From positions 1 through 35,826 of IMG/VR virus record IMGVR_UViG_3300037991_004101: a stretch of 35,826 nucleotides of DNA; one strand, 5' to 3'. The DNA comes from a virus (Duplodnaviria; Caudoviricetes). Below, piece after piece: positions 9,259 to 35,826 of this stretch. The number at the start of each line of letters is the position of its first letter. The stretch's first letter is position 1. Made by a program: the position numbers and the translations under genes. The notes beneath the pieces are model-generated. The model saw only the letters and a program-made list of their open reading frames with translations. It searched no databases and was not told the DNA's origin.

Positions 9259-9283
9259 GTTGTGTTCTCCCTTTATTGTTTAA

Positions 9284-9568
9284 TTAGTATTGATAGTCAG
9301 CTGTTTGATAATCACGAGCGTCATCAAGCCTGGCTTCCCAGTGATCTATATTTGCAACGCACCAAGATCTAATGTTGTTGTAAGTGGGTTCAGCATTGAT
9401 AAGCATTTGCTTTCGTGTGTAGCTCATACCACCGTTGATGACATTTGCGCATTCATCGGCTGGCGCATATCCACCGAAATTGATTACTACAAAAAGAATT
9501 GGCGCAAAGATTAAAGTGATTAAGCAGACAAGTTTAAAGTCTTCCATTAATTGATTGTCGGGATTCAT
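9284..9568 (-). CDS. Small single-TM protein (94 aa)
   Basis: AAGGA RBS; LVCLITLIFAPILFVVI TM segment; two downstream Cys. Confidence 0.75.
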   Translation of the reverse strand: MNPDNQLMEDFKLVCLITLIFAPILFVVINFGGYAPADECANVINGGMSYTRKQMLINAEPTYNNIRSWCVANIDHWEARLDDARDYQTADYQY

Positions 9569-9582
9569 GTCAGTGTCCTTGT

Positions 9583-9753
9583 TTAGTTGTTTAGTTCTCT
9601 TGCCGCTTCTCTGTCGAGTTCAGCATTCAATTCTTCTTCGTATTGAGCAACGTCATCTTGTTCTTGATCATCGTTCTCAGCTTCATAGCTGTCTTGATTA
9701 TTGATGCGATGAAGTTCAATGCGCATTGCAATTGAAAGTGTCGTTGTGTCCAT
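9583..9753 (-). CDS. 56-aa highly acidic protein (not in the ORF track)
   Basis: TAAGGA RBS; MDTTTLSIAMRIELHRINNQDSYEAENDDQEQDDVAQYEEELNAELDREAARELNN*; fills the gap in the leftward operon. Confidence 0.8.
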   Translation of the reverse strand: MDTTTLSIAMRIELHRINNQDSYEAENDDQEQDDVAQYEEELNAELDREAARELNN

Positions 9754-9764
9754 GTCGTTTATCC

Positions 9765-10087: not shown

Positions 10088-10115
10088 TTGTTCACTATAT
10101 AGGGGAGAAATTGAC

Positions 10116-10814
10116 ATGACTACACAAAAGAACGGTCTTGCACTCAAAGACCAATTAAGTCTTCAAGTAATGAAGCGACGTGATATCACAGCGTCAACAA
10201 AGCTCGTTTTAATCGGTATACTCTCAAGAGTAGACTGGACTACTTGGGAAAGTTCAAAAGGCTTCAAGAATGTATCTCAGAGAGATCTTGCTGACATCTG
10301 CGGAACAACGCTCGCAACAGTTGGCAAGGCAATTCAAAAGCTGGAGAGTTTAAACTTAATTCAGCGTGATGTATTCAAAGCCACAAAGCGGACAGCGCCA
10401 CCAACAAAAGTCAACATCAAGCTTATTCAAGAATACAAAGCAACTAAGATCAAGCGCTACAAAAGCAAGACTAAAACAAAGCCAGACTTTAAGCTTGAAG
10501 AAATTAAAACTATGTCACAGGGTGACAAAGAAACTAGGTCACTGAGTGACAAAGAAATTAAGTCACTGAGTGACAAAGAAAATAGGTCACTATCAATAGA
10601 GAGCGAGAATATTACAATAAAATATCAATATATAAACATGGCACTGGGCCAAGAGTGTATTGAAGAATCTGCTTTGAATGAAGAGGCTGAAGACTGGGGA
10701 GTTCGTAATTCAGAGCTTTGGGGAGATCATTTAGAGAATGATCTTTTGATTTCTTCTCACTCTGACATATACTCTGACACTGACATTGACACTGACAACG
10801 ACAAGGACAACTAA
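10116..10814 (+). CDS. Replication initiator (lambda O-like, winged HTH)
   Basis: GGGGAG RBS; SQRDLADICGTTLATVGKAIQKLESLNLI wHTH; internal iterons; adjacent DnaC-like gene. Confidence 0.8.
   Translation: MTTQKNGLALKDQLSLQVMKRRDITASTKLVLIGILSRVDWTTWESSKGFKNVSQRDLADICGTTLATVGKAIQKLESLNLIQRDVFKATKRTAPPTKVNIKLIQEYKATKIKRYKSKTKTKPDFKLEEIKTMSQGDKETRSLSDKEIKSLSDKENRSLSIESENITIKYQYINMALGQECIEESALNEEAEDWGVRNSELWGDHLENDLLISSHSDIYSDTDIDTDNDKDN
10514..10638. promoter_or_regulatory. Putative replication origin: 24-bp iterons plus AT-rich unwinding tract
   Basis: GTCAC-N3-GTGAC-AAAGAAA units at 10514, 10538 and 10562, partial unit at 10586; AT-rich tract at about 10608-10637. Confidence 0.8.
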
Positions 10815-12592: not shown

Positions 12593-12601
12593 ACAAAAGA
12601 C

Positions 12602-14248
12602 ATGAATGCATTTAATAGCGAAAAACCAAGACAAACTATAGGTAGACTTTTTCAAAAAATTACTACTGAGCGTTTTCAACAATTTGATTGTAACATCAAT
12701 TCATCAAAAGATAATAAAGACTATCAATGGATATGTGACATTTATGATCAAGCATCGAATAGCTTAATTGAACTAAAATCTCACAAAATCATTGACCCAC
12801 ACGAAACAACGCTTGACACATTCGAGAAAATCTTAAAACAAGATGAAGTCAGGCGAAAAAATAATCAAAACAATTCAGGGCTTTTTTATCAACTGACTGA
12901 AATGAGCAAAAAATCAGAAAGTTTTGCTGTTATGGTTGGTTGTTACAATGAGGATGTCAACAAATTAAAAAACCAACTGATCAGTAATGACCCAAAGGGT
13001 TATGCTTCTTTCACTGAATATCGTTTTTTAATCGTACTGCCTAATTCAGTTTATTGGTGTTCTGTCCCTCAAAGTAATTTTTGGAGACATATTAAGGCAT
13101 CTTGGGAGATAAATAATGGACAAATTAAAAGCTTCTTGAGAAATACGCTCGCAAGTTTTGATTTCTTAAGATCATATGAGATTACTGATCAAACAGGTTA
13201 TGAAAGAAGCTTGATTGATTTTGTCAAACAATTAAAATTTGGTCTAACTGAAGATCAGATTGAATTAGCTTTTGATGGTAAACCTTACCACAACTATGTG
13301 ACTGACACTCAACAACTAGAAATCAAACTAGATAAAACAATACAGACTTGGATTGAAAAAGAGAAGCAAGCTCAAGAATCAATTGAAGCCGAACAAAACG
13401 AAACTACTCAAGAACAAGCGCAAATTGAGCCTATTGAAAAGATCACTAAAGACCAAGTTGTTTTGTTTAAGCCTGACCAGCTTGAACTAATTGAAAAAGC
13501 TGTTGCTGATCATGAGTCTTTTTCAGCAATATCAGTCAAAGTTGGGCATTCTTCAAACTATATTGCTCAAATTATCTCACAGCCCAAAGGCACTTATACA
13601 AGAGAAGAATATGAACTATTTAGAAATTGGTTCATTGATATTTGCTTAGAGTCAAACCACTGGGAAACACCAAGTGATAGATGTAATTTAGATCAACTAA
13701 AACTAATCACTGACACATTGAGAATTAAATTAAGAGGACACAAGGCGCAAAATACAGGACTCAGAAACAGTAAGGCTGATCTAGAAAGTCAAGTTGAAGA
13801 GCTTACTGAATCAAGAGTCAGACAACGAAACATCATCAACGGTCTTGAATTAAAAATCAAAAAACACGAAGAGGAAATCAAAGAAATGGCAAACGCAGAG
13901 ACACAAGAAGACAAAGGCTTGAGTCAACTTGAAAAAGAAGCATATGAAGCGGAGATTGAAAAACTAAATGACTTCATTCAAGGTCACAAAGCAAGAGTTG
14001 AAAACTTTAAAATCAGTAATGAAGAACTTAAGGGAATCATTGAGAGATCTGAAGCAAGAGCGCTTGAAACTGAAGCTGTTAAACTTCAAGACGAGATTGA
14101 AGAGCTTCAGGAGGAACTTGAAGAGCAAAAGTCAGAGACTGAATCACTAAGAAACAATATACATAGCGCTTATCAAAAAGATCTTGAACGCTATCGCAAG
14201 ATAATTGACATGTTACTAGATCAACTCGACAAGCAAGAGAATGAATAA
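12602..14248 (+). CDS. 548-aa protein: putative PD-(D/E)xK nuclease domain plus long C-terminal coiled coil
   Basis: CDIYD.....LIELKS motif near the N-terminus; last ~180 aa are E/K/L heptads. Confidence 0.5.
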   Translation: MNAFNSEKPRQTIGRLFQKITTERFQQFDCNINSSKDNKDYQWICDIYDQASNSLIELKSHKIIDPHETTLDTFEKILKQDEVRRKNNQNNSGLFYQLTEMSKKSESFAVMVGCYNEDVNKLKNQLISNDPKGYASFTEYRFLIVLPNSVYWCSVPQSNFWRHIKASWEINNGQIKSFLRNTLASFDFLRSYEITDQTGYERSLIDFVKQLKFGLTEDQIELAFDGKPYHNYVTDTQQLEIKLDKTIQTWIEKEKQAQESIEAEQNETTQEQAQIEPIEKITKDQVVLFKPDQLELIEKAVADHESFSAISVKVGHSSNYIAQIISQPKGTYTREEYELFRNWFIDICLESNHWETPSDRCNLDQLKLITDTLRIKLRGHKAQNTGLRNSKADLESQVEELTESRVRQRNIINGLELKIKKHEEEIKEMANAETQEDKGLSQLEKEAYEAEIEKLNDFIQGHKARVENFKISNEELKGIIERSEARALETEAVKLQDEIEELQEELEEQKSETESLRNNIHSAYQKDLERYRKIIDMLLDQLDKQENE

Positions 14249-14480: not shown

Positions 14481-15147
14481 AATTTATCAAGATGGCAATG
14501 GAAGCGCAAAGCTGATTGACTTCATGGGAAGTGACAAGCGTATTGTTGATGCTGCTCGTGTTTCGTTTCTCAAAGATGATTATGCTGAAACGCAGTTGAC
14601 AGACAGAGACAAGAAGCTGATCACGTTTCTCGCTTCACATAATCACACTTCACCCTTTGAACATTGCATTGCTACATTCATTATTAAAGTTCCTTTGTTC
14701 GTGCGATCTCAAATCATGAGACATAGAACATTCAGCTATAATGAAGTAAGCAGACGCTACACTTCAGAGCGCATTGACTTTTGGAAGCCTAGTCAGATGA
14801 GGGGACAAGCAAAAGACAATCTTCAATGCTCCGATGGCGTTGTTGAATCAAGTGAAGCTGAAAGCGCTTTTAAGCTTGCGACTGAGTTCAGTCTTGCTAG
14901 TTATCAACAGTTGCTTGATGCTGGTGTCTCTCGCGAAATCGCTCGTGGCATCTTGCCACAATCGACATACACAACATTCTACATGACAGGCAATCTTCAC
15001 AACTGGATTAAGTTCATCAAGCTCAGGAATCATGAACACGCTCAACCCGAAACAAGAGACATTGCTGAACAGATTCAACGAGCGCTTGAAAAGTGCTTTC
15101 CAATTTCAATGTCAGCTTACTTTGATTCTAGTGCTGAGTTATCATAA
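14473..15147 (+). CDS. thyX: Flavin-dependent thymidylate synthase ThyX
   Basis: AARVS, HTSPFEH, RHRTFSYNEVSRRY (RHRx7S motif), EIARGILP, HAQ.E. Confidence 0.97.
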   Translation: MSKIYQDGNGSAKLIDFMGSDKRIVDAARVSFLKDDYAETQLTDRDKKLITFLASHNHTSPFEHCIATFIIKVPLFVRSQIMRHRTFSYNEVSRRYTSERIDFWKPSQMRGQAKDNLQCSDGVVESSEAESAFKLATEFSLASYQQLLDAGVSREIARGILPQSTYTTFYMTGNLHNWIKFIKLRNHEHAQPETRDIAEQIQRALEKCFPISMSAYFDSSAELS

Positions 15148-15182
15148 ATTAAGATGACTACTTTTTAGAATCGAGTGATTGA

Positions 15183-15533
15183 ATGAATGATGAGTATTTA
15201 AAGCTTTTCTGTGTGAAACTTTATCAAGATGGCTTCTCTGTTAATGAGATTCAAAAAGCGATTATCACAAATCATGATATTGTGATGTTGCTTGATGATG
15301 TTCAGAGCTTGCTTGATGAAGCTTTGACTGAACAAGATGTACAAAAACGCACACGTACGCGAGAAGAACAAGTGCTTCATGCACTCTGTGAGATCAAGAA
15401 AAGACTCGTTGATACTGACTGCTCTCCGCTTCACAAAGAGAGTGAAGAGCTATATCAAACAATTTGGCAAGCGATAGGTGAACATTATGGCTGGGACAAA
15501 ACAGACATCGAAGACACAGAAGACCAAGACTAA
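15183..15533 (+). CDS. Hypothetical acidic helical protein
   Basis: 116-aa ORF in operon orientation between thyX and terS. Confidence 0.7.
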   Translation: MNDEYLKLFCVKLYQDGFSVNEIQKAIITNHDIVMLLDDVQSLLDEALTEQDVQKRTRTREEQVLHALCEIKKRLVDTDCSPLHKESEELYQTIWQAIGEHYGWDKTDIEDTEDQD

Positions 15534-15960
15534 ACGCAAAAGCAAAGCTCAGATTCAACGAGAGAAAAAGCAAGAACTTCTCTTGGATAACATCAGAGCT
15601 GGCATGTCAATTCATGCCGCTTGCACTCAAGCGGGAGTTGGTCGCACAACTCATTATCAATGGTATGAAAAGAACGCTGCATATGCTGAAGAAGTTGACG
15701 CAGCAATTGGTTTTTCAGAAGCGGTCATGCTCGCAAAGCTTGACAGATGCATTGACGACAAGATGGACTGGCGTGGCTGGGCATGGCGTTTGTCAAAGCG
15801 CTTTCCTGAGTATTACGGTGACTTAAAGCAAATTGAAATGAATGTTTCAAAAAAGTCTGATGGCTCTGAAGAAGTACTTAGCATGATGAAGCAACTTGAA
15901 GAGCAAATGCAAAATAAGGGAAGCCTAGCTTCGTCTAGGGAGAACACAGACGAAAGCTAG
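15487..15960 (+). CDS. terS: Terminase small subunit (HTH type)
   Basis: GMSIHAACTQAGVGRTTHYQW HTH and DWRGWAWRLSKRFPEYYG motif; immediately upstream of terL. Confidence 0.8.
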   Translation: MAGTKQTSKTQKTKTKRKSKAQIQREKKQELLLDNIRAGMSIHAACTQAGVGRTTHYQWYEKNAAYAEEVDAAIGFSEAVMLAKLDRCIDDKMDWRGWAWRLSKRFPEYYGDLKQIEMNVSKKSDGSEEVLSMMKQLEEQMQNKGSLASSRENTDES

Positions 15961-15998
15961 GCTTCACTGACATGAATACAATGACAAGTTGTAGACAA
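15910..15998 (-). ncRNA. Candidate antisense small RNA (~85-90 nt) complementary to early-gene translation starts
   Basis: 17-bp stem with one bulge (15920-15936 / 15948-15965), loop region UGUGUUCUCCCU, CCUUAUUUU tail, and an upstream minus-strand promoter. Exact 12- and 13-nt complementarity to the mRNAs at 9261-9272 and 9563-9575. Confidence 0.6.
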
Positions 15999-16003
15999 CT
16001 AGA

Positions 16004-16032
16004 AAACTAGATCAAATCATGACTGAAATCAA
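16004..16032 (-). promoter_or_regulatory. Minus-strand promoter TTGATT-N17-TAGTTT overlapping the terL start
   Basis: Same -10 hexamer as the rightward early promoter; points into the 15920-15965 hairpin. Confidence 0.5.
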
Positions 16033-17392
16033 ACTAAATCCGCTTCAGCTTGAAATCATCAGAGGCATCACACGCAAAGACAAAGTGATTGCTGCTCGTT
16101 GTGGCTGGGGTTCAGGCAAGACTTCAGCGCTTGTGTTCTCCATCTTGTACTTGTCAAAAACAAGACCAGGGACTTCTTCGCTTTTAGTCACTGACACAAC
16201 ACCAAGATACAATTCAGTCTTAATGCCTGAAATGGAAAAATGGCTTAGTCCTCTTGGCTGGTCATACAATCACACAATGAAACAATGGACTGACAACAAC
16301 AATGGTTCAACTGTGTGGTGTCGCTCTTACTTTCGACCAGGTACAAGAGAAGCAACGCATAATCCTTTGGAGGGTTTAAACGTAACAAGCGGAGTCTGTT
16401 TAATTGACGAGTGTCAAACACTGACAATGGAAGTAGCACATAAAGCTCTTGGTCGTCTTCGTGCTGGGCCTAGTCCCATTTTGATTCTTGTTGGCTTGCC
16501 TGTCGTCGATGCTTGGTGGGTCAACATGGCAGAAAGTCAAAACATTACGCCTCTGTTCTTCAGCTCTTATGTCAATCAAGACAACTTAGCTGATGAGTGG
16601 TTCGAAGCAACCAAGATGTTGCCGGCTGACGAGCGTGAAGCAATGATCATGAATAAGCCAAAGCCACCGAGCGGCTTGATATATTCTGAGTTCAATGAAG
16701 CAAGCCATGTCATTGATAATTGGCAATATAAAGAAAGCATGACTGGGCGCATTGCGATTGACTGGGGATTCAGAAAACCAAGTGTATTGATTATTGCATA
16801 CGATGAAGAGCTTGACGCCTCTGTCATTTGTCATGAGATCAATCCGCAAGAGGTGACAACCGATCAACTGACAACGCTAATCTTGTCGATTGCGTGGCCT
16901 CGTTCATTGAAGAGTCAAGCACCAAGCAAGCGCATTTGGCTTGATGCTGGCGTTGCTGACAAAGCTGGTAAAGCTCGCAATGATCAAACAGGCAAGAGCG
17001 CATTCAGAGTTATGCGACAAGAGCCACCAAGAGGAATTGGAGTACCTCTTCGTCATACAAGTGACCCTATCAAAGTTGACATCTTGAATGGAGTGCAACG
17101 GCTTAAACGTGCTTTCAATTCAAAGCGCTATTTAATCACCAGGGAAGTGTGGAACAAAGGCGAGCGAGCAAGTGGAAACAGCATCAGAAAAGCAATCCTT
17201 TCTTATGCTTGGGATAACAAAGAGCAGCCAAAAAAAGATGGTAGAGAAGATCCACTCGATGCTTTAAGGTATGATTGCATTACATTCAATTGGAATGAAA
17301 ACGCACTTGATCAGAAGTATAAACCAAGACGCTCGGCAGTTCGTGGAAGCAGAAAAGTAAATGTTGGAGGATCAAAGACAAGGAGCTTTTAA
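16019..17392 (+). CDS. terL: Terminase large subunit
   Basis: Walker A CGWGSGKT, Walker B CLIDE, nuclease motifs IDWG and D..DALRY. Confidence 0.93.
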   Translation: MTEIKLNPLQLEIIRGITRKDKVIAARCGWGSGKTSALVFSILYLSKTRPGTSSLLVTDTTPRYNSVLMPEMEKWLSPLGWSYNHTMKQWTDNNNGSTVWCRSYFRPGTREATHNPLEGLNVTSGVCLIDECQTLTMEVAHKALGRLRAGPSPILILVGLPVVDAWWVNMAESQNITPLFFSSYVNQDNLADEWFEATKMLPADEREAMIMNKPKPPSGLIYSEFNEASHVIDNWQYKESMTGRIAIDWGFRKPSVLIIAYDEELDASVICHEINPQEVTTDQLTTLILSIAWPRSLKSQAPSKRIWLDAGVADKAGKARNDQTGKSAFRVMRQEPPRGIGVPLRHTSDPIKVDILNGVQRLKRAFNSKRYLITREVWNKGERASGNSIRKAILSYAWDNKEQPKKDGREDPLDALRYDCITFNWNENALDQKYKPRRSAVRGSRKVNVGGSKTRSF

Positions 17393-18216
17393 TGGAGTTT
17401 ATTGAAACTAAATTAGCCATAGTTCTTCTTGACTTGATAGGCTCAACCAAGTTTGTCCAGTCCGTTGGTCCTATGAAGAGCGCTATGTGGCTTCAATACC
17501 ATGATCGGCTTGCTCGCTCCTTGATCTACAAGTTCAATGGAAGAGAGATAGATCGTTCCGATGGATTCCTCTTAAGCTTTGAACGTCCAATAGATGCGGT
17601 TAATTTCGCTCTGACTTATCAGGAAACAATTCCCCAAAAGACTAAACTTGGTTGTAGGATCGGAATACATTGGGGAGTAGTGGTGGAAGTCAAACAGGCT
17701 GAGATCTACACCATGACAGGAGCTAAGTCCGTTGAGCTTGAGGGAGTAGCCAAGAATATATCAGCTCGTACTATGTCACTTTGTCAAGCCGGTCAAGTGC
17801 TGCTAACCAAGGAAGCCATGACAGCCATTAAAGGCCGGACTAATAGCTTTACCCCCAAAGGTACAAGATACGCTTGTGTTGGTGAGTACAGGTTTAAGGG
17901 AGTCAAAGAGACTCAAATCATCTATGCAGTTGGTTCAACTATTGAATCTTTGCAACCTCCTCCAGGAGGCGACAAGGTTAAAAGACTAGGTGGACCAAAG
18001 AAGATCAAGAGTAGGATAAGAGATCGAAAGCTTAAAGAGTGGATAGCTTGGTTTTTGGTGAGGTATTGCTTTATCTTGATTCTCTATGTGATCTCTACTT
18101 CAGTCCCTATTCTAATTGATCCACATGCAAGAAAGATGAATGGAGTTGATGACCTGTTCTATTGGATAGATTATGTCATGGAGTTTATAGCGATGTTTTT
18201 AGGTGGTGTATTATGA
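17392..18216 (+). CDS. Class III nucleotidyl (adenylate/guanylate-type) cyclase with C-terminal TM helices
   Basis: LDLIGST (metal Asp 1), GREIDRSDGFL (Asp 2), RIGIHWG.V, G.AKNISAR (N-x3-R), GQVLLT, FKGV; two hydrophobic C-terminal segments. Confidence 0.88.
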   Translation: MEFIETKLAIVLLDLIGSTKFVQSVGPMKSAMWLQYHDRLARSLIYKFNGREIDRSDGFLLSFERPIDAVNFALTYQETIPQKTKLGCRIGIHWGVVVEVKQAEIYTMTGAKSVELEGVAKNISARTMSLCQAGQVLLTKEAMTAIKGRTNSFTPKGTRYACVGEYRFKGVKETQIIYAVGSTIESLQPPPGGDKVKRLGGPKKIKSRIRDRKLKEWIAWFLVRYCFILILYVISTSVPILIDPHARKMNGVDDLFYWIDYVMEFIAMFLGGVL

Positions 18217-22272: not shown

Positions 22273-22656
22273 ATGGCTAATACAGATCAAATCATTTCAT
22301 TCGTTGCCGCTGAAGCAATCACTGAGTACGCTCTTGTTTCAGCTGATACCGCAGGAAAAATCGTCATCACTGATGCTGCTACTGATACAAGATGTTTGGG
22401 AGTAGCTCAAAGAGCTTGCTCAGCAGGTGACTCCGTTGAGGTTGTGATTAGTGGTAAGACTCGTGTTATTGCAGGTGCTACCATCGCTAATTCAGTAAGT
22501 TTAGTTATGGCTACTACTGATGGAAAAGTGGCGACACATGCAACTAGCGGAAATTACGCTATTGGCTCAATCATTCCTAACATCAACCAAGTTTCTTCAG
22601 CAAGTGGTGATCAAGTATTCATCAACTTCACTGGTCCAAAACTTCTAATCCCTTAA
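22273..22656 (+). CDS. Capsid decoration/cement protein (DUF2190-like)
   Basis: AAEAI, LGVA....AGD.V.V...G...V.AG..I and DGK pattern; lies between scaffold and capsid genes; GGAGG RBS. Confidence 0.8.
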   Translation: MANTDQIISFVAAEAITEYALVSADTAGKIVITDAATDTRCLGVAQRACSAGDSVEVVISGKTRVIAGATIANSVSLVMATTDGKVATHATSGNYAIGSIIPNINQVSSASGDQVFINFTGPKLLIP

Positions 22657-33653: not shown

Positions 33654-35826
33654 CAATAACAAGAGAGAATGGACGCAGGATCTTTGCTCTTCAAGTCAGT
33701 GGATTAGAGTATAGATACCACAGCACCACACCACCAAGCTCAACGAGTTTAGATGCTAACATAGCAACAAGCATTGCTTATATTGATCAAGAGGGAATCT
33801 CAACAGTTGGAGCTTTTAGCGCTTCGGTTGATCCAAGTGGTGGTATTGGTCAATACTCTCCAATTTCAATCACTCTCCAAATAGATCGCAAAGGTGGAAG
33901 TGGAGATCCAGGAGTAGTCTTTGGCAGGTGTGGCGCTCGGAGTGCTTCCAAGAGAGCACAGTTAACCGAAGATATAAACAGAGCAGACACCACCATCAAA
34001 GTAGGTCTTGATTTAACTGGATTATCTTATCCAAGGCTTTTTCATATTGGTTCTGAAACAGTCAGAGCAAGTAGCGCAACAAGCTCAACCATCACAGTAA
34101 CAAGAGCACAGGGAAACACTAGACCACAGTTTCATCGAGTAGATCTTGAGGGGTCTTTTGTTCCTGAGATCACAACCGAGATAACCACCTTTAGAGGTAG
34201 ACGAGCAAAACTATTCATGGCTCATCAATATACTGATGGGACTGTTAGTAATTATGTAGAAGTGATAAACGGCTTTATTGAGCAAAGTCCAATCATTGAA
34301 GCAGGTGACTCCATCTCTTTGTCTATCGTTCCTTTGACTGCTCTACTTGATACTGAGTTGGCTGACAAGATCAGTCAGACTAGACTCCTACAAGGCTTCC
34401 ACTATTTCGATGGTGAATATGGAAGCTCTATGGAGTACGCTCTTGGATTGAGTTATGACACCGAGCATCAAAGTCCAACACTTGCTCCAGATACAAGCAC
34501 AGCCATAACAGCAAATACTTTTAATACTGTTATCAATTCAAATTATACAACAGCGGATTACTTAGCCGACTTTGATCCATCTTTACCAAGTGGACCGGAT
34601 CGAGATGAATACATAGGAAGCCACCCACGTTATCCAAAGCTTAAGAGCTTCTTTCAAGCTCCTTTTGCAAATGAGGGAGTCTTCCCAACTAACTTAACTT
34701 ATTCCTCATCAATATCCGGTTATACAGTCAACGCAGATAGCTCTCCAAGTGTAGCGCTCACAGCAACAGAAATAACGAATACAGGCTTTTTTAACATCAC
34801 AGTAAACCGATATGAATTGAAACAACATGAGCTTGGTAATTCTGAGGTCAAGCGATGGCCTAATGTGATCAATGATGTTTTGGCAAGCTCAGGACCAAGC
34901 ACAACTCAAGGCTTTAATGGTGGCTTTGCTCAATGGCGCTTGAATGCTGATAATGTGATTCGAGCAAGCAAGCTGAGTAACTCACCATTTAAGGGCAAGG
35001 TAGTCTTATGGAATGGCTACAACGGTTTTATTAAGTTTAAAGAACATATTGAGAATGAGTTTGGAACAGCTTCTCCGAGGCTATACACCAACAACGGAAC
35101 AAGCTTAAACTTTCCTCCGGGTATTGGCCTTTATTATCCCTTGGACATTGGGGAGCAAGAAGATCCATTCTATCCCGACCAAGGTGACAAGTTCATAGAG
35201 GTCACAGCCTCAACCGAATCGAGAACAGGCTTTTTTAATCTTCGTGATATGGCTAAAGCATATTACCAAAACTATGAGTCTAAGATCTTGGTTGAGGATT
35301 CGCTTGGCTTGCCTACTTCGGCAACAGCAGGAAAAGTTTATGACATCATAGTTCTATACTATGACCGACAGAGCGAGAGCACCAAGAGACAAACTTTTCA
35401 AGTGACTCATGAAACTTCTGCAAGCTTTGGAGGATCATCTATAGGAAGACTTCTTCATATAGCCGATTCTAATAGCTTCTCCAATAATGTGAGCTTTGCA
35501 GATTGGCAAGATTCGGAAAGAGTCTTGATCTTTAGAGGTAGTCAAGTCATTGAAGACAATGCAGGCCAAATCATGCTCAAGCTCTTAGAGAGTGGCGGTG
35601 GTGATTCGATTAATGGCAGCTATGATCTTTTAGGATTAGGCTTGAATATATCAAGTAGCGACATCGATGAAGATAGCTTCTTGGCCGTTGGCGCTTCCTG
35701 TCCTTTTGTGTTCACTGATCAATTCGCAGGAGATGGTTCAAGCTTGAGAGAGATCTTTGATAGCTTGTTGAAATTGATGGGTTCTTGTCTTGTAATGAAG
35801 CGAGATGAGTCCACCGGTCGAAGTCG
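33650..35826 (+). CDS. Large tail-tip/hub protein, N-terminal part (runs off the window end; missed by the ORF track)
   Basis: GAGG RBS and ATGA overlap; MTITRENGRRIFALQVSG... has no stop to the window end; continues as 1-1500. Confidence 0.88.
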   Translation, partial: MTITRENGRRIFALQVSGLEYRYHSTTPPSSTSLDANIATSIAYIDQEGISTVGAFSASVDPSGGIGQYSPISITLQIDRKGGSGDPGVVFGRCGARSASKRAQLTEDINRADTTIKVGLDLTGLSYPRLFHIGSETVRASSATSSTITVTRAQGNTRPQFHRVDLEGSFVPEITTEITTFRGRRAKLFMAHQYTDGTVSNYVEVINGFIEQSPIIEAGDSISLSIVPLTALLDTELADKISQTRLLQGFHYFDGEYGSSMEYALGLSYDTEHQSPTLAPDTSTAITANTFNTVINSNYTTADYLADFDPSLPSGPDRDEYIGSHPRYPKLKSFFQAPFANEGVFPTNLTYSSSISGYTVNADSSPSVALTATEITNTGFFNITVNRYELKQHELGNSEVKRWPNVINDVLASSGPSTTQGFNGGFAQWRLNADNVIRASKLSNSPFKGKVVLWNGYNGFIKFKEHIENEFGTASPRLYTNNGTSLNFPPGIGLYYPLDIGEQEDPFYPDQGDKFIEVTASTESRTGFFNLRDMAKAYYQNYESKILVEDSLGLPTSATAGKVYDIIVLYYDRQSESTKRQTFQVTHETSASFGGSSIGRLLHIADSNSFSNNVSFADWQDSERVLIFRGSQVIEDNAGQIMLKLLESGGGDSINGSYDLLGLGLNISSSDIDEDSFLAVGASCPFVFTDQFAGDGSSLREIFDSLLKLMGSCLVMKRDESTGRS
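35225..35826 (+). repeat. Right copy of the 602-nt imperfect terminal overlap
   Basis: About 92% identical to 1-602 by manual alignment. Confidence 0.95.

Follow-up and report, generated by a model that had tools for sequence, protein, structure and literature searches.

The terS-terL junction of the phage genome analysed here raises the question of whether the end of the small terminase gene carries, on its opposite strand, a small RNA that reaches the translation starts of distant early genes. A sequence-only reading had put forward such an RNA, with a plus-strand decoy for a CsrA-type regulator as its alternative. In what follows, the window designates the whole stretch of DNA that was analysed (35,826 nucleotides). 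A conserved signal at the junction and a complementarity to gene starts that tracks the relatives make it likely that one RNA turns down the early replication and recombination genes. We regard a trans-acting antisense RNA, likely damping these early genes together, as the probable explanation.

Genome setting and gene neighbourhood

The window represents a whole phage genome of about 35.2 kb, the first and last ~600 bases of which repeat (imperfect terminal repeat at 1-602 and 35225-35826). In three relatives, the two open frames at its ends are united in a single gene of about 1030 codons, so that the record can be read as a complete circular map. The leftward early operon encodes an HTH protein, a 56-aa protein, a 94-aa protein and a RecT-like protein. 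The rightward early operon encodes the initiator, a DnaC-like loader, an Arc-like protein, SSB, a 548-aa protein and ThyX, and is followed by terS, terL and the virion genes. The genes terS (15487..15960, plus strand) and terL (16019..17392, plus strand) were assigned to the PHROG terminase small and large subunits, respectively. Directly 3' of terL lies an adenylate/guanylate cyclase-like gene (PF00211, 17392-18216), and in several relatives terL is followed by a gene of similar length and start. A counterpart of the junction element behind terL was looked for by eye in distant relatives, and in those inspected the next gene comes straight after terL.

No integrase, CI-type repressor or ParA-type ATPase was recognised among the 44 window proteins, and no RNA-binding regulator either. 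A tyrosine integrase was absent from all 4 relatives searched for it, and a ParA-type ATPase from all 5. No relative was found in the prokaryote genome collection, and among annotated phages the matches were distant terminases only. Family and structure searches with the product of the 548-aa gene (12602-14248) gave no usable match. Within the initiator gene, positions 10513-10575 hold three repeats with a 24-bp spacing and a palindromic GTCACTCAGTGAC core, followed by A/T-rich DNA; these are likely origin iterons. Promoter-like (10122-10094) and terminator-like (10153-10133) minus-strand sites overlap the initiator start. A run of CTGACA/TGACA repeats (10762-10805), similar in relatives, covers the end of the initiator gene and the dnaC leader, where it could provide extra pairing sites or protein sites.

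Anatomy of the predicted RNA

On the minus strand, the junction presents in order a promoter-like site, a 5' hairpin, an unpaired linker, a long hairpin and a U-rich tail. From the promoter spacing and the tail we infer a small RNA of about 87 nt (15910..15996, minus strand), the 5' end of which would fall between 15996 and 15999. The promoter would be a leftward one of host type placed in the first terL codons: its predicted -35 box TTGATT (16027..16032, minus strand) lies inside terL codons 3-5 and its predicted -10 box TAGTTT (16004..16009, minus strand) in the non-coding spacer. The 5' hairpin (15977..15993, minus strand) has 5 bp and a 7-nt loop, CUUGUCA (TGACAAG on the plus strand), which by modelled pairing is a possible third seed, against the dnaC leader. 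Next come the unpaired linker seed (15966..15977, minus strand), antisense to the ACUGAC-AUG tag at the starts of early genes, and the long 3' hairpin (15920..15965, minus strand), which has 17 pairs with one bulge and spans the terS stop (15958-15960). Its 11-nt loop (15937-15947, minus strand) bears an anti-Shine-Dalgarno seed against recT. The RNA would end at this long hairpin, which is likely a terminator and is followed by the U-rich tail CCUUAUUUU (15910..15919, minus strand).

The sequence-only reading had described a 17-bp hairpin with one bulge across the terS stop, a minus-strand TTGATT-N17-TAGTTT site (16032-16004) and a U-rich tail, all of which are present. It missed the second hairpin, at 15977-15993. 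The 13-nt stretch that it called a hairpin arm shows the identity claimed for it but is mostly unpaired linker between the two hairpins.

Folding of the hairpin 15920-15965 was better than that of all 200 shuffles on each strand (z of -5.1 on the minus strand and -6.2 on the plus strand), so that folding alone cannot name the strand. The predicted RNA lies opposite the last 17 terS codons, stop included, and the spacer; the terL start is outside it, the 5' end stopping 20-23 nt short of the terL ATG. No Rfam family matched the window at its gathering score, and around the junction Rfam gave five chance-level matches to unrelated families. For positions 14500-17500 no RNA holder was listed, a negative that has no bearing on expression. 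Two coding interpretations of the junction were rejected: a small frame at 15972, because its length, frame and start are not conserved, and a terS-terL frameshift, because both other frames are closed by stops at the A-run.

Predicted targets in the window

Interaction energies were calculated with our own ViennaRNA-based script, rather than with IntaRNA, as ungapped duplexes plus the opening energies of both partners; they ignore the strain of pairing within the 11-nt loop. The 40 gene starts of the window were ranked in this way, one of them, that of a 172-aa gene (score -5.9), being set a few bases off. The six top-ranked starts all belong to early genes. The ribosome-binding site of recT (RecT-like, start 9258; site 9261..9272, minus strand) comes first with -15.2 kcal/mol, followed by the start of the 548-aa gene at 12602 (12599..12610, plus strand; -12.7 kcal/mol) and that of the replication initiator (ATG 10116; 10110..10124, plus strand; -11.5 kcal/mol). 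The starts of the 94-aa gene (9568; 9563..9575, minus strand; -11.1 kcal/mol) and of the 56-aa acidic gene (9753; 9744..9756, minus strand; -8.7 kcal/mol) rank fourth and fifth. The leader of the DnaC-like loader gene (10816; 10795..10805, plus strand) is a weak sixth, near background at -6.4 kcal/mol.

These targets had been anticipated in part. The 12-nt identity between 15937-15948 and the recT start (9272-9261) and the 13-nt identity between 15965-15977 and the 94-aa gene start (9575-9563) are exact; no longer match links 15900-16035 with the remainder of the genome, and one further 12-mer match occurs at 22284. We also recovered the match of 15/18 to the 56-aa gene (one G-U, two A-C) and that of 11/12, with a G-U, to the gene at 12602. 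The 8-nt matches announced for the HTH and initiator genes are both exact, but the HTH duplex falls to 0 kcal/mol in the window once accessibility is counted. The proposal that three consecutive leftward genes are the targets stands insofar as recT and the 94-aa and 56-aa genes are among the top five; the predicted targets are however found in both early operons. The set has been widened to the initiator, the variable gene after ssb and, weakly, dnaC, and the HTH gene is unsupported in the window.

As for the comparison with shuffled sequences, the target energies beat both shuffled RNA and other gene starts: none of 500 shuffles reached the five-target sum of the predicted RNA, while for the 56-aa start alone 14 of 500 scored as well. 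The junction (score -65.0) was also ranked among 1664 equally long windows taken from the two strands, where it comes second, and first once windows overlapping a target's own start are set aside (next -46.7, mean -10.6). On the sense strand, CTGACA occurs 26 times against 14.2 expected and ACTGAC 25 times against 10.4. The early gene set was picked after the window's matches had been seen and the region was chosen for its matches, so that the tests within the window are partly after the fact and the relatives carry the weight.

Conservation of the layout in relatives

Relatives were gathered by TerL, TerS, RecT and DnaC searches, which yielded 126 distinct terS 3' ends. The layout is common to 42 distinct junctions, which were divided by eye into six groups: A (20 junctions, including the window), B (2), C (7), D (6), E (3) and F (4). 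In a DnaC tree of 18 genomes and 4 outgroups, a branch separates each of groups A, C, E and F from the rest, and B and D are each represented by a single tip standing apart; the RecT tree was poorly resolved and did not keep group A together.

Within group A (17 sequences), 97.6% of the cells are paired over 15 modelled pairs, 8 of which vary on both sides. Both-side changes affect 3 of 5 pairs in the 5' hairpin (17 sequences, 98.8% of cells paired, loop core invariant) and 5 of 10 modelled pairs in the long 3' hairpin. The covariation score was reached by none of 500 column shuffles, a test that relatedness inflates, and slid registers drop to 23-54% paired. The stems vary freely beside conserved loops and linker. 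The linker seed is mostly invariant in group A, and groups D-F have other letters there, which their own gene starts match. A covariance model built from group A (17 sequences) and run against 54 sources retrieved the window and L022 (E 0.15) only, with no other group at E < 0.1 and groups C-F out of its reach; kinship across groups therefore rests on position and anatomy.

Of 27 distant relatives, 24 do not show the layout after terS, 22 of them having nothing in that place. The other three (L161, L165, L172) form one lineage, in which the layout recurs with an unrelated seed of 16-18 nt directed at the lineage's own recT. Behind the terS stop of L161, L164, L165, L167, L169 and L172 lies a hairpin with minus-strand G-U pairs and unrelated letters, and a minus-strand TTGAT-17-CATA site occurs within the start of the next gene in 5 of these 6. 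L202 and L186 score above controls for a single gene only. The terS 3' ends of L023, L063, L176 and L186 bear hairpins that favour the minus strand, with no or weak matches to the early starts tested; they are possibly related units with other targets.

Promoter-like site, tail and strand of the structure

The promoter-like site of the window (TTGATT-17-TAGTTT, 16032-16004) has 7 of 12 consensus letters and is not among the sites listed by an automated promoter scan. It shares its -10 box, letter for letter, with the site ahead of the initiator. On the two strands of the window genome together, TTGA-16/18-TAnnnT was counted only 20 times, and it is antisense at a single one of 41 gene starts, that of terL. 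In all 42 junction variants a TTG-led hexamer stands 16-18 nt from a TA-led hexamer, which would place the start near the 5' end of the unit, and the -10 box has the TAnnnT form in 35 of them. Two genomes (L033, L092) have an unrelated gene in place of terL after terS, yet this gene supplies the -35 box and the unit is retained. Downstream, the 14 nt that follow the stem contain on average 7.9 T on the minus side versus 2.9 on the plus side (48 variants), a count to which A-rich codons may contribute because the U-rich tail lies in the terS coding sequence.

The mismatches of the long stem are informative as to the strand. Counted per sequence rather than per event, and on the inner stems that the script took for group F, the mismatches of 31 distinct stems are G-U on the minus strand in 40 cases and on the plus strand in 3, all three adjoining the loop. 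The same procedure applied to 216 neighbouring windows gave 87 versus 122. Judged from these sequence comparisons, the long stem is selected on the minus strand. Together with the conserved promoter geometry and the tail, this bias points to a minus-strand RNA running from about 15996 to about 15910.

Lineage-matched seeds and tags

Co-variation between the RNA and its predicted targets was followed in 18 genomes possessing both the junction and the early region. When the RNA of each group was confronted with the early starts of each group, the own-group combination scored best in all 6 rows and in 4 of 6 columns. Correct assignment of RNAs to targets ranked first among 720 permutations, and among 120 when group A was set aside; for control genes the corresponding figures were 176 of 720 and 29 of 120. 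The words involved differ between lineages: A and C share the ACTGAC-ATG tag, E has CTGACAAAGG, and D has ACGAC and GACAGG. The group F seed CCACAGGAGAA sits in the unpaired part of the long stem and the group B seed AATAAGGAGAACT in the stretch behind the stem. The L034 junction has no start-codon tag and shows instead a 14-nt match to the upstream half of the same leader.

Non-homologous genes located after ssb bear the tag of their lineage and rank near the top. This slot holds the 548-aa gene in the window (12602-14248) and, elsewhere, GHKL-type ATPases of 655-663 aa or a 92-aa STPR-repeat protein (7232-9214 in L213, 5959-7923 in L220, 7865-8140 in L215). L121 (near 7494) and L119 (near 12477) possess an extra 56-aa gene in which the start region and the opening codons are a duplicate of the corresponding part of the 94-aa gene. 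When gene starts were ranked in two near-whole relatives, the leading 7 of 40 in L060 and the leading 4 of 44 in L093 belonged to early genes. We also scanned the loci of seven relatives for windows beating the junction, and found 0 of 584 (L008), 0 of 598 (L154), 2 of 506 (L093), 4 of 516 (L036), 4 of 454 (L049), 7 of 542 (L155) and 31 of 492 (L022, where the truncated test window excluded the seed). The top-scoring rival windows in L036, L049, L155 and L093 are themselves antisense to further gene starts with the same tag, some of them belonging to the non-homologous genes after ssb. These comparisons favour the antisense reading proposed earlier: as far as sequences can tell, complementarity is kept in relatives that use different letters, and the structure is selected on the minus strand.

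Several results weigh against pairing between the RNA and its targets. Mismatches between junctions and their own starts comprise 13 G-U-compatible changes, 22 A-C and 26 transversions, and those of the other-group control 44 G-U and 54 A-C. G-U is thus not favoured and the wobble test gives pairing no support, its power being low because most mismatches lie outside the seeds. L013 and L017 have a one-base insertion in the linker seed, though the L017 initiator retains the tag. Groups B, D and E show modest pairing energies, mostly of -5 to -10 kcal/mol. Control starts match early starts in score in L049, a non-early start comes second of 46 in L045, and some non-early starts also rank high in L038, L050 and L154.

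Alternative explanations

The main rival to an antisense RNA is a tag of the sense strand read by a protein of the phage or the host, either a regulator resembling T4 RegA, which is a translational shut-off regulator, or a protein bound to oriented DNA sites like the stoperators and start-associated sequences of mycobacteriophages. The junction would then be one more tagged site, ahead of terL, and a minus-strand RNA would be local at most. Such a protein would suit the sense-strand enrichment of CTGACA and ACTGAC and their repeats ahead of early starts; by co-evolving it would also yield lineage-matched tags, and it is at ease with RNA-target mismatches that do not favour G-U and with the full Shine-Dalgarno and ATG that accompany the junction tag in L035, L038 and L044. 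It accounts poorly, however, for unrelated segments of the junction matching different starts (start-codon tag, Shine-Dalgarno loop, tail). That groups F and B and the L161 lineage match via Shine-Dalgarno-side sequence is unexplained by one protein motif; moreover, the stem is selected on the opposite strand, with its own promoter and tail, and no RNA-binding regulator was recognised. We consider this explanation unlikely. As a separate observation, in L035, L038, L044 and L147 the junction tag follows a full Shine-Dalgarno and opens a frame of 14-20 codons, the end of which falls within or close to the terL start.

A more local role is conceivable, in which a cis-antisense RNA or a terminator unit adjusts the ratio of TerS to TerL, either by forming a duplex or through convergent transcription, the matches to early starts being by-products. 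The complete complementarity to the terS end and spacer fits this role, and so do the minus-biased terS-end hairpins of L023, L063, L176 and L186, with no or weak early-start matches. What makes it improbable is that the terL start is left uncovered, that the unit persists where another gene replaces terL (L033, L092), and that neither the own-lineage matching (1 of 720) nor the conserved loops and linker beside varying stems are explained. The junction could also act as DNA, as a pac-type packaging-initiation site or a single-stranded DNA hairpin at the terS end, with TGACA boxes bound by terminase. The pac sites of other phages are often in or near terS (P22, SPP1, T4), TGACA occurs two to four times in the spacer, and a G-T wobble bias suits single-stranded DNA equally; since promoter geometry, U-rich tail and matches to gene starts 3-7 kb off would be unexplained, we find this very improbable. 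Finally, a plus-strand element might be at work, whether the CsrA/RsmA-type decoy with a GGA hairpin loop suggested by the sequence-only reading or the start of a small peptide gene. The loop does carry GGA in groups A, B and part of C, and most members of group A have an ATG after the linker. Decoys of the CsrB/RsmZ type have several GGA motifs, placed in hairpin loops of the transcribed strand; here, unlike them, there is one GGA loop, which groups D and E as well as L034, L038 and L044 lack, and it is the other strand whose structure is selected. As for a peptide, its frame would have 9-26 codons in a varying reading frame, with an ATG that L013 has lost and that groups B and D do not possess. 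A decoy or peptide start is hardly credible on these grounds.

Proposed mechanism

In the antisense reading that we prefer, the predicted RNA would pair with the translation starts of the early genes and block their translation jointly. The unpaired linker would mask the start codons of the initiator, 94-aa, 56-aa and 548-aa genes, the 3' loop would do the same to the Shine-Dalgarno of recT, and leaders, that of dnaC for instance, may be within reach of the 5' loop. Because its promoter resembles the early promoters, the RNA would accumulate with time and genome copy number. Its accumulation could wind down the initiation and recombination proteins around the onset of packaging, and the terS-terL message, fully complementary to the RNA, could absorb it late.

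A more ambitious version can be offered tentatively, and we lean against it as a whole: a master switch made of RNA only, in a phage with no recognisable integrase or CI-type repressor. A tag in the early starts, those of newly acquired genes included, would be read by one junction-antisense RNA that counts genome copies, shuts down initiation and recombination at packaging and is cancelled by the late terminase message. The regulon would be held together by RNA pairing alone, its seed and tags being re-coded in each lineage.

Comparison with known systems

Most known phage antisense RNAs are directed at a single neighbouring gene or at genes of the host. C4 of P1 and P7 acts on one antirepressor operon. 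It folds into three stem-loops, is released from a precursor by RNase P and has a role in immunity and lysogeny (PMC5320573, PMC5499578); the CI RNA of P4 is named beside it (PMC5499578). Like C4, the junction RNA would be a phage product of about 80 nt that pairs in trans with messages of the same phage through two exposed stretches, one of them over a ribosome-binding site, here by prediction and co-variation, and in both cases seed and target vary jointly between related phages (PMC5320573). Unlike C4, it has two hairpins and a linker, no Rfam match and its own predicted promoter and terminator. With a dedicated predicted promoter just ahead of the 5' hairpin, processing by RNase P would be unnecessary. 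Its predicted targets are at least 5 gene starts in two divergent operons, in genomes where no integrase or ParA was found. The junction RNA would thus work like P1 C4 but is not a member of that family.

As described, VpdS of VP882, PreS of lambda and DicF (PMC12197685) and SviR of PLE (10.1101/2022.04.08.487710) target genes of the host, of another element or of both, several of them with Hfq, and SviR uses separate seed regions. The predicted RNA would share with all four of these RNAs short imperfect seeds, several targets and translation control; it differs in mirroring a start-codon tag of the phage's own early genes and in its place at the terminase junction. By sequence and prediction, it has the features of a trans-encoded sRNA, namely its own promoter and terminator, no coding capacity, and conserved unpaired seeds against distant starts. 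The accessible text of the review PMC12197685 describes no phage RNA with the junction layout.

OOP, aQ, sar and sas are cis-antisense phage RNAs acting on the overlapping gene (PMC12197685, PMC5415839). As with these, an opposite-strand promoter lies within a phage operon and a coding end is overlapped; in contrast to OOP and sar, conserved exposed stretches match genes 3-7 kb off and the terL start is not covered. The plasmid copy-number RNAs CopA and RNA I are cis-encoded with one target (PMC5415839), and the junction RNA would resemble them if, in proportion to genome copies, it limited a replication initiator. No account of the junction element was found in the literature searched, most subscription journals being outside its coverage. 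In the supplementary files searched of a catalogue of phage structured RNAs, six contig identifiers were unmatched (PMC10690425), and the catalogue may still list the hairpin as an unnamed candidate.

The closest counterpart to the tags is provided by the start-associated sequences of Cluster K phages, asymmetric 13-bp elements of fixed consensus at non-structural gene starts (PMC3203893). That paper leaves open whether they are read by RNA or protein, and notes single copies, oppositely oriented, that are tied to no gene start. The tags described here, ACTGAC-ATG and CTGACAAAGG, are likewise oriented repeats at non-structural starts; unlike the 13-bp consensus they are shorter and lineage-specific, and a candidate RNA reader is present. 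If the antisense reading is true, one RNA that evolves jointly with a tag at many early starts of the same phage would be the RNA counterpart of a shut-off of the T4 RegA type. It would also offer an answer to what reads start-associated repeats, which PMC3203893 left undecided between RNA and protein. The natural lineages supply matched and mismatched sets of RNA and targets, which makes this readily testable by reporters.
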